A stretch of 32,000 nucleotides of DNA from Limnoraphis robusta BA-68 BA1. Lineage in GTDB: Bacteria > Cyanobacteriota > Cyanobacteriia > Cyanobacteriales > Microcoleaceae. Shown here one piece after another: positions 5,460 to 11,599 of this stretch. The stretch spans positions 179 to 32,178 of the forward strand of contig NZ_JAYGHR010000068.1 in assembly GCF_034932365.1 (NCBI RefSeq), written 5' to 3'. Below the pieces are notes generated by a model. The model made no database searches, was not told where the DNA came from, and was given only the letters and a program-made list of their open reading frames with translations. Position numbers and translations under genes: made by a program. Within the stretch, counting starts at the first letter, position 1; each line of letters begins with the position of its first letter.

Positions 5460-6734
5460 CTAAAGAAAAAATGAGAATGCTTTTTTGAATCGATAAACTG
5501 CTTGTTTAAACCCTTGGATAAATTGCTGAACACTTTTTAAAGCTAATCGTTTTAATCGATAACGAACAACTTGATAACGATGATCAATTGTCGGCATTCT
5601 GAGCAAGATATAAACAGCTTTTCGAGTCAAACGAGCGAGAAATCCTTTCAGTTCTATTCCAAAACTAGAGACAGTTGCAGAGTGAACTCCTAACGTTAAC
5701 ATCTGTCCTAAATGTAAATAATGAAACGCTCGTAAGGGTTTTTTATCAATTGCTGCTTTGAGATTTTTAGCCGCACAATTTGCTTGTTGAAATGCGGCTT
5801 GAGCCGTTGTTGGAACTTGTTGACCTTTGCGATCGCGTATATCTGCTAAATCACCTAAAGCAAAGACTTCAGGAAAATCAATCAGTTGCAGTGTCGGTTG
5901 AGTTAGTAGCTGTCCTTGACTATTATGTTGACATGAGAGAAGATGTAGCCATTCTCTGGCTTGAGTTCCAATGGTTCCAATCACTAAATCCACAGGAACA
6001 GTATAGGTTTGACTTCCCTGAATTATATTAATAGAATTTTCACCTACCGCCTCAACTTGGGTTTGAAACTTGATCTGAACACCCCGATTAATTAGGGATT
6101 TATACGCCACATTTTGGCAACAGGTAGAAAAGTTTTTGAGGATTTTTTGACCTCGAACAATTAAAGAAATCTCGCCTCGTTCTCCTAAACGATCTACTAA
6201 TTTCCCTGCTAATTCAACTGCATTTGCTCCGCCACCGAGAATTCCAACTCTAATTTTAGATAAGTTAGAATTTTCGAGAATGTGTAGTTTCTCTTGCAAA
6301 CGTATTGCATCACTTAGGGTTCGGAAAGCATAAGCATGAGTCGAGACACCTGGAACATCAGAATAGGTTCGTCTTCCAACAGCGAGAACTAAATAATCGT
6401 AGAATAAAGCAGGGCTATCTTGCAGTTGAATTTGATGTCTTTCTAAATCAACCCCTTGGATCGTTCCTTGACGAAATTGCACCTCAGTGTCTATTAATAA
6501 TTTTCAAAAGGGAGGCGCAACTTCCCAAGTTTGAAGTTCTCCTGTGATTAATTCATAGAGAAAGGGAGTAAACAGGAAGCGATCTTTTTGATCAATTAAA
6601 ATAATTTCGGGTTTGTTCGCTTTAGATCCAAATAGACGATCTAAGTACAAAGCTGTGTATAACCCCGCAAACCCACCCCCGAGAATACAAATTCGAGCTT
6701 GATTGCTCGACCCTGATTGTAAATTTTTCAGCAT
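5460..6734 (-). pseudogene. Type II NADH dehydrogenase (NDH-2, FAD/NAD(P)-binding oxidoreductase) interrupted by a single in-frame TGA
   Basis: ORFs 6504..6734 (RICILGGGFAGLYTALYL dinucleotide-binding motif) and 5460..6482 (second GGGANAVELAG motif, ALGDLA) lie in the same frame. They are separated only by TGA at 6504-6506 and seven sense codons (PPF*KLLIDTEVQFRQG). Confidence 0.75.
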
Positions 6735-7004
6735 ATATTAGCCTCTTACATAGAGAGGTTTGTCAATAGCTTAATTAGACCGATGAACGCTATCCAAGCG
6801 ATAGCAGTGACTGGGTAAAGTTTAGAGGTTTTTTTGAAACTTTCAAGGATTTTATCAAACAATAGAAATGAGCTTATGCGGTTCAAATGACTAATACAAG
6901 ATACTTATGTAAAATAATCCGGGTGGAATGTAAAGGGTTTGTAAAATCTCTCTTGATTTTTTAGGGATTTAGCTTAAACTTGATCCATTTTTCCAAGATT
7001 TGAG

Positions 7005-7243: not shown

Positions 7244-7325
7244 GCGGACGTGGCGGAATTGGTAGACGCGCTAGATTTAGGTTCTAGTACCGCAAGGTGT
7301 GAAGGTTCAAGTCCTTTCGTCCGCA
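7244..7325 (+). tRNA. tRNA-Leu (anticodon UAG), class II with a long variable arm; CCA not encoded
   Basis: Acceptor stem GCGGACG/CGTCCGC with discriminator A. Anticodon stem CTAGA/TCTAG with loop TTTAGGT (anticodon TAG). Variable arm TACCGCAAGGTGT. T arm GAAGG-TTCAAGT-CCTTT. Confidence 0.9.
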
Positions 7326-7369
7326 TTAACTTCATCAAAAAAAACACTTAAGGGACAAGGCTTTCACTT

Positions 7370-7407
7370 GCGGATTCACATATTTGCAGAATCTCAATGG
7401 TTTTGAC
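7370..7407 (+). other. Non-coding relic or copy of an internal tnsC segment, lying between the tRNA and the transposon end
   Basis: gcggattcac + atatttgcagaatctcaatggtttt matches tnsC positions 10064-10073 and 10075-10099. That is 35 identical nt with a single 1-nt gap. Confidence 0.8.
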
Positions 7408-7453
7408 CGTAATAAACCTAACTTGGTTTTATTACTAAAGACGTTATACAATA

Positions 7454-7700
7454 TGTCGAGTATCAAATTATATTTCGTTTTCTCAAATTAATTTCGCTAG
7501 AATAAATTAGCTGAAATCATCTTATAGCAATACTTTCAAGGATTATAGCCCGATTTTCGCAACCCAATCAATTTCACAAATTAGTTTTCGTTTTTTAAAG
7601 AAATCACAAATTAGTTTTCGTTTTTTAAAAAAGCGGCGATTTTAAGTATTTTTCCATCGATCACAAATTAAGCTTCATTTTTTAAAATTTTTGTGATATC
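7454..7700 (+). mobile_element. Tn7-like (type V-K CAST-like) transposon left end with TnsB-binding-type repeats
   Basis: The terminus TGTCGAGTATCAAATTA resembles the ShCAST left end I recall (TGTACAGTGACAAATTA). Repeats of the form [TC]CA[AC]AAATTA-N-TT[TC]G occur at 7461-7481 and 7482-7497. There is an exact 26-bp duplicate tcacaaattagttttcgttttttaaa at 7574-7599 and 7604-7629, and a third copy at 7661-7687. This region lies immediately upstream of tnsB. Confidence 0.65.
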
Positions 7701-7763: not shown

Positions 7764-9509
7764 ATGAACGACTCACTCGTCAATAAGTCTAACGGTGATT
7801 CATTTCAACTCAATCTTTCTTCAATTTCAGAGGAGGTTCCCGAAGTTACAGAACCTTCACACCAAACGGAAGGGTACGAGATAGTAACAGAACTTTCCTC
7901 CGAAGCCAAGCTCAAGATGGAATGTGTTCAAAACATCTTATCTGCACCCAATCGCAAAATTAGAGGAGAGAGAGTTAAAGAAGCCGCAGCTAAGTTGGGG
8001 AAAACTGTCCGAACAATTCAGTATCTACTCAAAGATTATAACGAGAAAGGCATATCTGCCATCACCGTAACAGAACGCTCGGATAAAGGAGAATATCGGA
8101 TTAGCCCACAATGGCAAGATTTTATTATTAAGACTTACAAGGATGGTAATAAACAGGGGCGTAAAATGACTCCCGCTCAAGTAGCGATTCGGGTAGCAGC
8201 AGAAGCGGATCGGCAGGGATTGACAGAATTTCCTTCTCGGATGAGTGTTTATCGGGTTCTCAACCCCATTATTGAGAAGAAACAGAAAAAGCAAAAAATC
8301 CGTAATATAGGTTGGACAGGTTCAACGCTTTCCCATAAAACTCGTGCGGGTTCAACAATAGAAGTCAAGTACAGCAACCACGTTTGGCAGTGCGATCATA
8401 CCCCACTCGACATCATGCTCGTTGACCGATACGGTAAACCTCTAAGCCGTCCCCGGTTAACGAAAATCACCGATAGCTATTCTCGCTGCATCATGGGAAT
8501 TTACCTGGATTTTGACTCACCCAGTTCTCAAGTGGTATCTTTGGCTTTGCGTCATGCAATTTTGCCCAAAAAATACAGCCCTGAATTCAAGCTCAATTGT
8601 GAGTGGGGAACTTATGGGGTGCCGGAACATCTGTTTACCGATGGAGGTAAGGAGTTCAAATCCGATCACTTGAAACAGATTGCTTTTCAACTCCAGATGG
8701 AGCATCATTTGCGCGATCGCCCTTCCGAAGGGGGTATTGAAGAACGTGGGTTTGGAATAATTAATACAGATTTTTTAGCGGGTTTCTCTGGATATCTTGG
8801 TTCTAATGTTCAACAACGCCCTCCCGAAGCTGAGAAAGAAGCTTGCCTAACTTTGGAAGAACTTCACCAATTGATTGTCCGCTATATTGTGGACAATTAC
8901 AACCAAAAAATCGATGCTCGTAGTGGAAATCAAACTCGGTTTCAACGTTGGGAAGCAGGTTTACCTGCGCTTCCGCGATTGATCGGCGAGCGAGAGTTGG
9001 ATGTTTGCCTGAAAAAACAAACCCGACGGACAATTTATCGAGGAGGATATCTAACCTTTGAGAATATCCGATACCGAGGAGACACTTTGGCTGCCTATGC
9101 AGGGGACAACGTAATTTTGCGTTACGATCCCAGAGATATTACAACCGTGTGGGTTTATCGCTTAGACAAGGGAAAAGAAGTCTTTTTAGCACCTGCCAAT
9201 GCGATGGACTTGGAACGAGAATGTTTATCTCTTGAAGAAGCCAAAGCCGCAAGCAGAAAAATACGGGCCGAGGCGAAGACGATTAGCAACCATTCTATTC
9301 TCGAAGAAGTACGCGATCGCGATGCTTTTATCAAGGATAAGAAAAAGAAAAAAAGTGTTCAGCAGCGAAAGAAAGAGGAACAGAAATTGGTTCATCCTTC
9401 TCCAGAGCCAATCACTCAACGAGAAGAACCTGCTGTAGAACAAACTCTTTCTCCTGTTAAGAGGCGAGTTTTTGACTATGACCAACTCCGTAGAGATTAT
9501 GACGGGTAG
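7764..9509 (+). CDS. tnsB: Tn7-like transposase TnsB (DDE/RNase H-fold, Mu-type)
   Basis: ORF 7701..9509, with the first ATG at 7764 giving 581 aa. DDE region motifs: HVWQCDHTPLDIMLVD and LFTDGGKEFKS. The size and Lys-rich C-terminal tail fit V-K TnsB (ShCAST TnsB is about 584 aa as I recall). Confidence 0.88.
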   Translation: MNDSLVNKSNGDSFQLNLSSISEEVPEVTEPSHQTEGYEIVTELSSEAKLKMECVQNILSAPNRKIRGERVKEAAAKLGKTVRTIQYLLKDYNEKGISAITVTERSDKGEYRISPQWQDFIIKTYKDGNKQGRKMTPAQVAIRVAAEADRQGLTEFPSRMSVYRVLNPIIEKKQKKQKIRNIGWTGSTLSHKTRAGSTIEVKYSNHVWQCDHTPLDIMLVDRYGKPLSRPRLTKITDSYSRCIMGIYLDFDSPSSQVVSLALRHAILPKKYSPEFKLNCEWGTYGVPEHLFTDGGKEFKSDHLKQIAFQLQMEHHLRDRPSEGGIEERGFGIINTDFLAGFSGYLGSNVQQRPPEAEKEACLTLEELHQLIVRYIVDNYNQKIDARSGNQTRFQRWEAGLPALPRLIGERELDVCLKKQTRRTIYRGGYLTFENIRYRGDTLAAYAGDNVILRYDPRDITTVWVYRLDKGKEVFLAPANAMDLERECLSLEEAKAASRKIRAEAKTISNHSILEEVRDRDAFIKDKKKKKSVQQRKKEEQKLVHPSPEPITQREEPAVEQTLSPVKRRVFDYDQLRRDYDG

Positions 9510-9587: not shown

Positions 9588-10421
9588 ATGGCAGATGATT
9601 TACGCAAATGGATAGAAAATCTCTGGGGAGACGAGCCTCTGACAGCAGAAACCCAAAAAGAACTGGAACGTTTAATCTCTCCCCAGGTGATTGAGCTTGA
9701 TCATATCGAGAAAATTCATAGTTGGCTCAATGATTTGCGCCTGATGAAACAATGCGGCCGAATTATTGCACCGTCTCGAACGGGAAAATCTGTGACTTGC
9801 GACATTTATCGGCTGCTAAACAGACCTCAAAAACGCTTGGGAAGAAGGGATATTATACCCGTTTTATATACGCAAGTTCCGGGGGACTGTCAGTCGGGAG
9901 AATTATTATCCTTGCTACTGGAAGAATTAGGCTATGATGAAACCTCGGGCAACGTGACTCAACTTCGCCGCCGCTTACAGAGGTTACTCAAAGAGTCAAA
10001 GGTGGAGATGATTATTATTGATGAAGCCAATTTCCTCAACCTCAAAACCTTGAGTGAAATTGCGCGGATTCACGATATTTGCAGAATCTCAATGGTTTTA
10101 ACTGGAACAGATGAATTAGATAATCTAATAAAAAAAAAGGAGTACATTCACAGGCGATTTGTTGAATGTTATCGGCTCAAAGCCCTAACAGAAAATCAAT
10201 TCCCTAAAGTTGTTCAAATGTGGGAAGATGATATTGTTAAGCTGCCCGTTCCTTCTAACTTAACAAAGCCAGAAACCTTGAGACGATTGTACGAGAAAAC
10301 GGGTGGCACAATTGGTCTCTTGGATCGAGTTTTAAGAAGGGCTGCGATTCTTTCATTGAAGAAGGGCAATTCCAAGATTGATCGGGAAACTTTGGATGAA
10401 GTTCTGGTTCGATATGAGTAA
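9588..10421 (+). CDS. tnsC: AAA+ transposition regulator TnsC (short V-K type)
   Basis: 277 aa. Walker A is PSRTGKS and Walker B is MIIIDEAN. The sequence reads colinear with ShCAST TnsC as I recall it (VLTGTDELD, MWEDDIVKLPVPSNL). Confidence 0.88.
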   Translation: MADDLRKWIENLWGDEPLTAETQKELERLISPQVIELDHIEKIHSWLNDLRLMKQCGRIIAPSRTGKSVTCDIYRLLNRPQKRLGRRDIIPVLYTQVPGDCQSGELLSLLLEELGYDETSGNVTQLRRRLQRLLKESKVEMIIIDEANFLNLKTLSEIARIHDICRISMVLTGTDELDNLIKKKEYIHRRFVECYRLKALTENQFPKVVQMWEDDIVKLPVPSNLTKPETLRRLYEKTGGTIGLLDRVLRRAAILSLKKGNSKIDRETLDEVLVRYE

Positions 10422-10427
10422 TGAGAT

Positions 10428-10925
10428 ATGACTAATCGAAAACCTCAGCTTTTTACGGTTGAACCTCTCAAAGGAGAGAGTCTCAGCCATTTTTTGGGCA
10501 GGTTTCAGAGGGAAAATTATCTCAAGCCTGCTCAACTGGGCAAATTAACGGGATTGGGGGCTACAATCTCCCGGTGGGAAAAACTTTATTTGAACCCTTT
10601 TCCTCAACCTCAAGAATTGGAAGCATTGGCGGCTATTGTTCAAGTTGAAGTTGACAGACTGATGCTGATGCTTCCCCATCGAGGGATGACCTTACAACCC
10701 AGACCGATTTTGTTGTGTGGCGCTTGCTACCAAGAAAACCCCTGTCATCAAATTGTCTGGCAGTCGAAAAATAAGTTTGGGTGCGATCGCCATCAACTGC
10801 GTTTATTATCGAAGTGTACCAACTGTGGAACCCCCTTTTCAATTCCTGCTCAATGGATACAAGGAGAGTGTCCCCACTGTTTCCTACCATTCACAACAAT
10901 GCTAAAATGTCAAAAGCACCTCTAA
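10428..10925 (+). CDS. tniQ: TniQ family target-selection protein (short V-K type)
   Basis: 165 aa. The N-terminus (EPLKGESLSHFLGRFQRENYL) and Cys-rich zinc-finger part (LCGACY, CHQIVWQ, CDRHQLRLLSKCTNCGTPF, CPHC) closely parallel ShCAST TniQ as I recall it. Confidence 0.88.
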   Translation: MTNRKPQLFTVEPLKGESLSHFLGRFQRENYLKPAQLGKLTGLGATISRWEKLYLNPFPQPQELEALAAIVQVEVDRLMLMLPHRGMTLQPRPILLCGACYQENPCHQIVWQSKNKFGCDRHQLRLLSKCTNCGTPFSIPAQWIQGECPHCFLPFTTMLKCQKHL

Positions 10926-11395
10926 ATACGGCTATGGACTCGACTACCGAAACGTTGGAAAACCCATATTCTCAGTTTCAAGCTGCCTGTTCCAAGATTT
11001 ACATCGAATTGGTTGACATGGAGTTGACAGTCCAAGCAATGGTATCAAGGTCTGAGTCCAGCGCACCTGAGTATGAAGTGATCGCACCGTCTGAGGTGTC
11101 CCAAGAAGCTCAAGAAGGGCTAAAACTTTACTACGATAACGGTGGCCAGAAGACCTGGGTTTTATCGGAAGCTTTAGCGAATGGTCAACCGATTACGAAT
11201 CAGCAAATTGACGAGATGGTATCATTTTTTAATGATGCGATCGCCAAAAGAAATCAACCCGAATGGAACGATATTAATGCTCCCTTTCAACCTTTGATTT
11301 GTTGGAAATTGATGGGAGGGGATTTTGGTAATCTTTGGTCAAGAACAACGAAGGAGTTGTATGTGAGTATCAAAAAGCAATTAAGTCAGCAATAG
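10907..11395 (+). CDS. Hypothetical acidic protein, first gene after tniQ
   Basis: ORF 10781..11395. The ATG at 10907 overlaps the tniQ stop (10923-10925) by 19 nt. No motif recognised. Confidence 0.5.
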   Translation: MSKAPLNTAMDSTTETLENPYSQFQAACSKIYIELVDMELTVQAMVSRSESSAPEYEVIAPSEVSQEAQEGLKLYYDNGGQKTWVLSEALANGQPITNQQIDEMVSFFNDAIAKRNQPEWNDINAPFQPLICWKLMGGDFGNLWSRTTKELYVSIKKQLSQQ

Positions 11396-11599
11396 TTTTA
11401 TCTTGAAAAAAGTGGCAGGGAGTTGTTAGAAAAACTTTTGATTTCGGAAAATTATTAAGCATCTAAATTAGATGCACTTGGAAAAGTAAAGCTGCAAAAT
11501 AAAACGGGTTTCGTCTTTCATTGAACACAACACCCGTTATAGGCGATGGGGGAATTTGCGTTGAGATACAGATACTTTAGCTGAAACCCTTGGCTTATC

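Follow-up and report, generated by a model that had tools for sequence, protein, structure and literature searches.

How does a short, internal piece of a transposition gene come to lie outside of the very transposon that carries this gene? The question is posed by a 32,000-nt stretch of Limnoraphis robusta BA-68 BA1 DNA (contig NZ_JAYGHR010000068.1, positions 179 to 32,178; "the window" hereafter, to which plain coordinates refer), where the spacer between a tRNA gene and the end of a type V-K CAST holds a near-perfect copy of a segment of tnsC, 46 bp from the insertion point of the CAST bearing that tnsC. The features concerned are laid out as follows:

7244..7325, + strand: tRNA-Leu(TAG), called by ARAGORN; matched by no guide and not the homing target of this CAST
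7326..7369, no strand: Leu-side host spacer, 44 bp, found in empty (uninserted) alleles
7370..7407, + strand: tnsC-derived fragment, 38 nt here and 39 nt in alleles with the G (see below), oriented as the tnsC of the element
7408..7448, no strand: host spacer on the Thr side, holding an AT-rich hairpin (7409-7435); in empty alleles it runs on into the tRNA-Thr trailer
7449..7453, no strand: 5-bp target-site duplication CAATA, with its second copy past the far end of the element (C68:47271-47275) and a single copy in empty alleles
7454..7700, + strand: transposase-proximal end of the V-K CAST (right, PAM-distal), in which putative TnsB sites recur (repeats D10 and D13)
7764..9509, + strand: tnsB, 581 aa (Pfam Mu-transpos_C, rve)
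9588..10421, + strand: tnsC, 277 aa (Pfam TniB, AAA_22)
10064..10102, + strand: donor segment within tnsC, directly behind the Walker B motif (about codons 159-172)
10428..10925, + strand: tniQ, 165 aa (Pfam TniQ)
C68:43803-45785: cas12k (NF038191 V_Cas12k, 875.8 bits)

When tnsC 10064-10102 is aligned to window 7370-7407, 37 of the 39 nt match, the two differences being one G missing from the fragment after 7379 and one A>G change at 7405. This bears out what a preliminary description, made from the letters alone, had pointed out, i.e., 35 identical nt over 7370-7404 with one base missing, and direct reading likewise confirmed its distances (47-84 bp from the TGT terminus, a GGTT at 7399-7402, and a tRNA ending 128 bp from the element). 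The quick fading of similarity on both sides was also correctly seen, as resemblance to tnsC beyond the edges of the fragment is not significant (shuffle P 0.10-0.56), and a longer, decayed tnsC homology spanning the 128 bp was rejected on the same grounds. A BLAST search returned the fragment against tnsC with E = 1.3e-9 (against the 7.26-Mb genome, within which it is the sole tnsC match of such quality), and its local score of 66 compares with values of at most 33 for random 128-nt genome windows, save one outlier of 192 that is taken to be a window overlapping tnsC itself. Furthermore, a second, independent assembly (GCA_034932045.1, L044) is identical to the locus over 20 kb, which makes an assembly error very unlikely; given the score, the E value and this assembly, both chance and misassembly were rejected as the source of the fragment. 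Weaker resemblances elsewhere, namely partial matches on contig C14 within a pentapeptide-repeat-like gene and a 40-nt match in L041 that is not a tnsC, were dismissed as chance. The AT-rich hairpin next to the fragment (fold z -3.4) received no terminator call, and a hairpin within the fragment itself was rejected, as it folds no better than shuffles do (z -0.8 and 0.0).

The element beside the fragment is an ordinary 39.6-kb type V-K CAST. Over 47 bp, its end at 7454 matches the far end in inverted orientation at 87% (C68:47224-47270, the element finishing at C68:47270), the inverted ends start with TGT, and CAATA, present once in empty alleles, flanks both of them. There is no ORF between the end at 7454 and tnsB, the operon is devoid of tnsA, and cas12k is followed by a nine-repeat CRISPR array and then by a truncated repeat with a 17-nt spacer. 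An Rfam search for a tracrRNA after cas12k gave no match; the place expected for it is occupied by a 550-bp gap, which presumably resembles a V-K tracrRNA. Upstream of cas12k (L001:9363-11786) lies a 608-aa same-strand ORF, with no divergent regulator ORF of at least 80 aa directly there, and array spacer 2 (L001:14459-14491) begins with a tRNA T-arm-like 13-mer identical to C85:12958-12970, a full protospacer for this spacer being absent from the genome. As for tniQ, a 744-bp, 95% identical orphan copy of its 3' end and the next ORF (G000:C61:179162-179905 vs window 10783-11526) starts at the HIP1 octamer GCGATCGC, and the 3' 135-140 bp of tniQ are tandemly duplicated in L144 (starting at the same HIP1 octamer) and in L145, so that this octamer is possibly a hot spot of cargo exchange.

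V-K CASTs home to tRNA genes via truncated repeat-spacer guides; in the published layout, the target tRNA lies beside the CRISPR-side (left) end, with 46-82 nt between this end and the PAM, and the transposase-proximal end is the right one by convention (10.1101/2021.02.06.429022; PMC9938897). Here, the 17-nt anchor guide matches tRNA-Thr(GGT) at 17 of 17 positions, with a GTG PAM, 59 bp from the CRISPR-side end. With the anchor protospacer at the far, CRISPR end, 7454 must be the right, PAM-distal end, not the left one as it had been labelled in the preliminary description, and the fragment adjoins the tnsB-side end rather than the CRISPR-side one. The tRNA-Leu is thus a bystander whose 128-bp distance from the CAST, earlier found puzzling for tRNA-directed homing, needs no explaining; more generally, the tRNA next to the tnsB end of such an element may not be its homing target. 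Elsewhere, transposon-end-like sequence begins 34-36 bp after tRNA-Leu(TAG) in other species (L003:1644-1690; L011 near 1620), which probably makes that tRNA a CAST target there, and the tRNA-Leu(TAG) of the congener G004 faces a tRNA-Arg(CCG) across about 130 bp (L006:1310-1595), a similar convergent pair with another partner.

The same geometry bears on the proposal that the fragment is a Cas12k target common to the attachment site and tnsC, which the element would also carry internally and protect. GTN trinucleotides do occur in and next to the fragment, and the GGTT at 7399-7402 had been offered as a PAM for a protospacer near 7403-7425; however, since the CRISPR-side end of a V-K element sits beside the PAM, this GGTT would point to the wrong end, and the real protospacer lies in tRNA-Thr at the other end of the CAST. 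None of the eight array spacers matches the fragment, and neither these spacers nor the truncated guide match the 35-mer or 7403-7425 (the best being 12/17 anywhere in the flank); the spacers of strain WC205, compared by eye, do not match it either, and the 36-nt core of the fragment has no match in 400 other cyanobacterial genomes. For this CAST the proposal is refuted, and as a general account of the fragment it has next to no probability left.

The direction of copying follows from the peptide that the donor segment encodes: this peptide is conserved in TnsC homologs (the tnsC relative of 80% DNA identity, L046, has homologous codons), hence the coding copy is the source and the transfer ran from tnsC to the flank, the reverse transfer being rejected for the same reason. 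Of its 39 nt, the fragment shares 36-38 with modern tnsC alleles; the nearest outside relative (L046) has an overall identity of 80%. Given how distant the outside relatives are, this points to a donor of this very CAST lineage, and a search of 143 family genomes gave no close DNA relative of this tnsC. Dating the fragment by its mismatch (TTG, as in L155 and L046) was tried and set aside as weak, for L155 looks recombinant there: 10 of its 24 differences from the tnsC of this genome are clustered within 60 nt overlapping the donor segment (L155:2258-2317, tnsC nt 492-551), a cluster that suggests a recombination tract.

Further evidence comes from alleles devoid of the CAST. Other L. robusta alleles were gathered by way of variant TnsC and flanking NADH dehydrogenase sequences, and four public runs were added. 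(The NADH dehydrogenase itself, window 5460-6740, is split here and in L044 and is an intact protein of 424 aa in most other strains, so the stop, seen in two assemblies, is a recent strain-specific change.) Six empty sites were found, in L068 (GCA_000972705.2, strain CS-951), L154, L156, L157, L158 and L159, each with one CAATA and a distance of about 155 bp between tRNA-Leu and tRNA-Thr, and all six bear the fragment. L156 and L157 are possibly a single sample, and L157 and L159 seem to equal contigs of runs X3 and X4; other L. robusta sources with the fragment thus number at least five, and in three of these the 36-nt match is perfect. The perfect match is seen in L156, L157, L158 and all of the CAST-bearing lake strains, the G is missing in this genome, L154 and L159, and in CS-951 TGTC replaces CAC. 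Run X1 equals the window up to 7453 and then diverges, and run X3, with zero depth over the CAST, shows an empty site that contains the exact 36-mer. Uninserted genomes thus do carry the segment, an outcome that the preliminary description had coupled with an unrelated conserved flank; the second half of that pairing does not hold, the segment being tnsC-derived. Its presence at empty sites makes the fragment most likely older than the present insertion. Moreover, the flanks of this genome are identical to the empty allele L154 and those of the lake strains to the empty allele L158, which indicates separate insertions into fragment-bearing alleles; the simplest reading of these sequences would be at least two homing events into alleles already holding the fragment, repeated precise excision being a less likely cause of the fragment-bearing empty sites.

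The only L. robusta allele without the fragment belongs to WC205 (GCA_022184905.1, L047), where a decayed, chimeric element begins 34 bp after tRNA-Leu and its two flanks do not match each other. This element (L047:3250-9260) occupies the same site and has the same anchor spacer, with tnsB deleted, a tnsB-side end of this CAST family and a Thr-side end of a different type; its MerR-like and methyltransferase genes are kept, and no cas12k is present among the called genes. In L158, a tyrosine-integrase island (L158:134-1560) is inserted in the same tRNA-Thr, the 3' part of which was left duplicated.

Taken together, it is very probable that the fragment is a non-functional relic that predates the present insertion and came about via deletion or patching. 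As to which of the two, the sole short tnsC copy of this genome lies near the insertion point of its own element, in the orientation predicted by unidirectional homing, which suggests an earlier encounter at this very site, and we lean, with somewhat better than even confidence, towards a neutral relic of an earlier CAST of the same family that collapsed at the tRNA-Thr/tRNA-Leu hot spot. An ancestral L. robusta would have carried a CAST here in the usual orientation; this would have collapsed by deletions at short homologies, one reaching from the tnsB end through tnsB into the 5' part of tnsC, the other taking the remainder, with 39 bp left; and the compact allele would then have spread through the species and been re-invaded at CAATA by RNA-guided homing at least twice. 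Re-invasion beside the fragment would account for the fragment and its donor now being 2.7 kb apart. Collapse is favoured by the decay of this family through deletion and by a site hit by islands and endowed with variable trailers: both WC205 and run X4 show internal deletions of tnsB (with joins of about 3 shared bases), the tRNA-Thr trailers vary between alleles, and an integrase island has entered the site in L158. The preliminary description had listed a scar of an older CAST at the same site among its readings, and this is the best supported of them, the segment being both tnsC-derived and present at empty sites. Another sign that this CAST family decays by deletion, a 42-bp, end-only remnant elsewhere in the genome (C2:12066-12107), lies ~45 bp from an apparent intron-containing tRNA-Leu, judged by eye (ARAGORN, run without its intron option, made no call); a junction similar to that of this remnant is found in run X11.

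Collapse, however, demands two deletions stopping 39 bp apart, which counts against it, as does the absence of any recognisable transposon end, duplication or cargo remnant in the 44-bp and 75-bp arms; no intermediate alleles of such a collapse were found at the site. In addition, had the earlier CAST inserted at the same distance as the present one, only ~29 bp of Thr-side DNA and not 75 would be left, so an extra event is needed, e.g., replacement of the tRNA-Thr trailer by an integrase-type island, of the kind that islands and replaced trailers in L158 and L047 exemplify. Precisely these difficulties are avoided by a short templated patch, whereby single-stranded tnsC DNA would have paired with the spacer at short homologies and taken the place of ~40 bp of it, again without any function: one event would suffice for a short, sharp-edged, near-perfect copy without end remnants, no Thr-side replacement would be called for, and five bases (TTGCG) are common to both sequences at the left edge. 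Such a patch could have drawn on an incoming or nearby element, or on the forks of an aborted copy-and-paste transposition (SPDIR-like or by template switch); SPDIR yields microindels of this type from chromosomal or mobile DNA (10.1101/2024.07.02.601687), and, V-K elements lacking TnsA being replicative in their transposition (10.1101/2021.02.11.430876), donor DNA would be brought to the target. Yet extended homology at the sides is not significant (P 0.10-0.56), and no pre-patch, parental allele was seen among about 20 loci, so that we regard patching as the chief alternative to collapse, a possible, though rather unlikely, origin.

A third route, that of a CRISPR spacer cut from tnsC by the host Cas1-Cas2 and integrated off target, is suggested by the exact core of 36 nt, equal to the mean V-K spacer length (10.1101/2021.02.06.429022), and by the GTT (a GTN PAM) that the core follows on the tnsC minus strand, a post hoc match with a ~1-in-8 chance. 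Such an integration should have left a flanking repeat or a duplicated target, neither of which is present (direct-repeat P 0.89); the match extends to 39 nt through the would-be PAM, which reads GTN in the flank as well, the orientation does not fit the CAST's own array, and the position at the attachment site is left unexplained, all of which makes this origin very improbable. No evidence was found of mis-copying by the reverse transcriptase of the cargo DGR either.

Would a relic of this sort be expected at other CASTs? The preliminary description had proposed a search for tnsC fragments outside of the left end of other V-K CAST loci, and self-comparison of 72 other TnsC loci (about 69 distinct TnsBC-TniQ loci), covering mostly the tnsB-side flank and with the type V-K assignment (Cas12k) not established locus by locus, returned no short tnsB, tnsC or tniQ copy in the outer flank; the matches otherwise were a repeat within one tnsB, tniQ 3'-end duplications inside of elements, and chance-level ones. 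No other carrier turned up when plasmids and contigs from genomes, metagenomes and viruses were scanned for the pattern, although blanks in these scans are weak. In five congeneric genomes, the tRNA-Thr locus lies away from tRNA-Leu (1.2 Mb apart in the closed genome G004), meaning that the fragment sits in a junction seen solely in L. robusta among the genomes examined. The tnsC fragment, therefore, looks specific to this lineage.

A fragment found in all but one of the L. robusta alleles seen might still be there for a reason. It could be kept as a host countermeasure, either as an antisense RNA, with tRNA-Tyr-Thr read-through at the empty site yielding an RNA antisense to the tnsC mRNA, or as a direct-repeat deletion trap after insertion, with recombination deleting the tnsB end and tnsB, so that the CAST would be immobilised and its defence cargo fixed. 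As far as sequence goes, an RNA read from the minus strand of the empty site would be antisense to tnsC, and in the occupied site the two copies form direct repeats that enclose the end and tnsB. Against this, the CAST has entered at least twice, an AT-rich hairpin stands between tRNA-Thr and the fragment, no repeat-mediated deletion was seen (in run X11, tnsB depth is not reduced, as judged on contigs), the tnsB deletions that are seen use other joins, and about 69 other loci offer no parallel. In addition, two classes of alleles have lost the full match to tnsC, since both changes seen break it. Pairwise differences per base average 0.037 in the fragment, against 0.017 in one arm, 0.062 in the other and 0.025 upstream of the tRNA; in this comparison of seven related alleles, which makes for a weak test, the fragment seems no better conserved than the neighbouring DNA, and nothing suggests that the match is being preserved. 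The earlier suggestion of a sequence under selection is accordingly unsupported, a function for the fragment is unlikely, and the countermeasure in particular would be improbable.

Were the fragment to restrain the transposon, it would matter much more, no host being known to us to encode an antisense RNA or a deletion trap directed at a CAST, and the evidence points away from such restraint; as a scar, it is a small natural-history record. Read as such, it suggests that the "empty" attachment sites of L. robusta have been occupied before and emptied again, and that one tRNA has seen a V-K CAST family go through a cycle of insertion, collapse and re-invasion.

Set against known systems, the element itself conforms to the ShCAST/AnCAST-type V-K (Tn7-CRISPR-Cas12k) plan in its tnsB-tnsC-tniQ operon without tnsA, cas12k, array and 17-nt anchor guide, as well as in the GTN PAM within a tRNA, the 59-bp spacing and the 5-bp duplication. 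It departs from the V-K CASTs covered in the available parts of the published accounts in having a second, convergent tRNA at its PAM-distal end, by which the preliminary description was led astray, and those parts describe the loss of tnsBCQ by degradation and no tnsC remnant in a host flank (10.1101/2021.02.06.429022; PMC9938897). SPDIR, which the published work consulted describes in Acinetobacter baylyi and not in cyanobacteria (10.1101/2024.07.02.601687), resembles the present case in producing a short patch at an ectopic position, the template of which can be traced to another part of the genome or to a mobile element. It differs in that SPDIR patches are recognised by two illegitimate joints at extended microhomologies relative to a parental allele, and no parental allele was found for the fragment. 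Decayed island remnants are known at tRNA integration hot spots, where the scars are usually ends or duplicated 3' parts of the tRNA. The fragment shares with them that it is a short mobile-element leftover between tRNAs repeatedly hit by CASTs and integrase islands (L047, L158), and differs in being an internal coding piece without an end, alongside which the same CAST family has re-inserted; most likely, then, the fragment adds one case to a known type of scar and is unusual just in being an internal coding piece.
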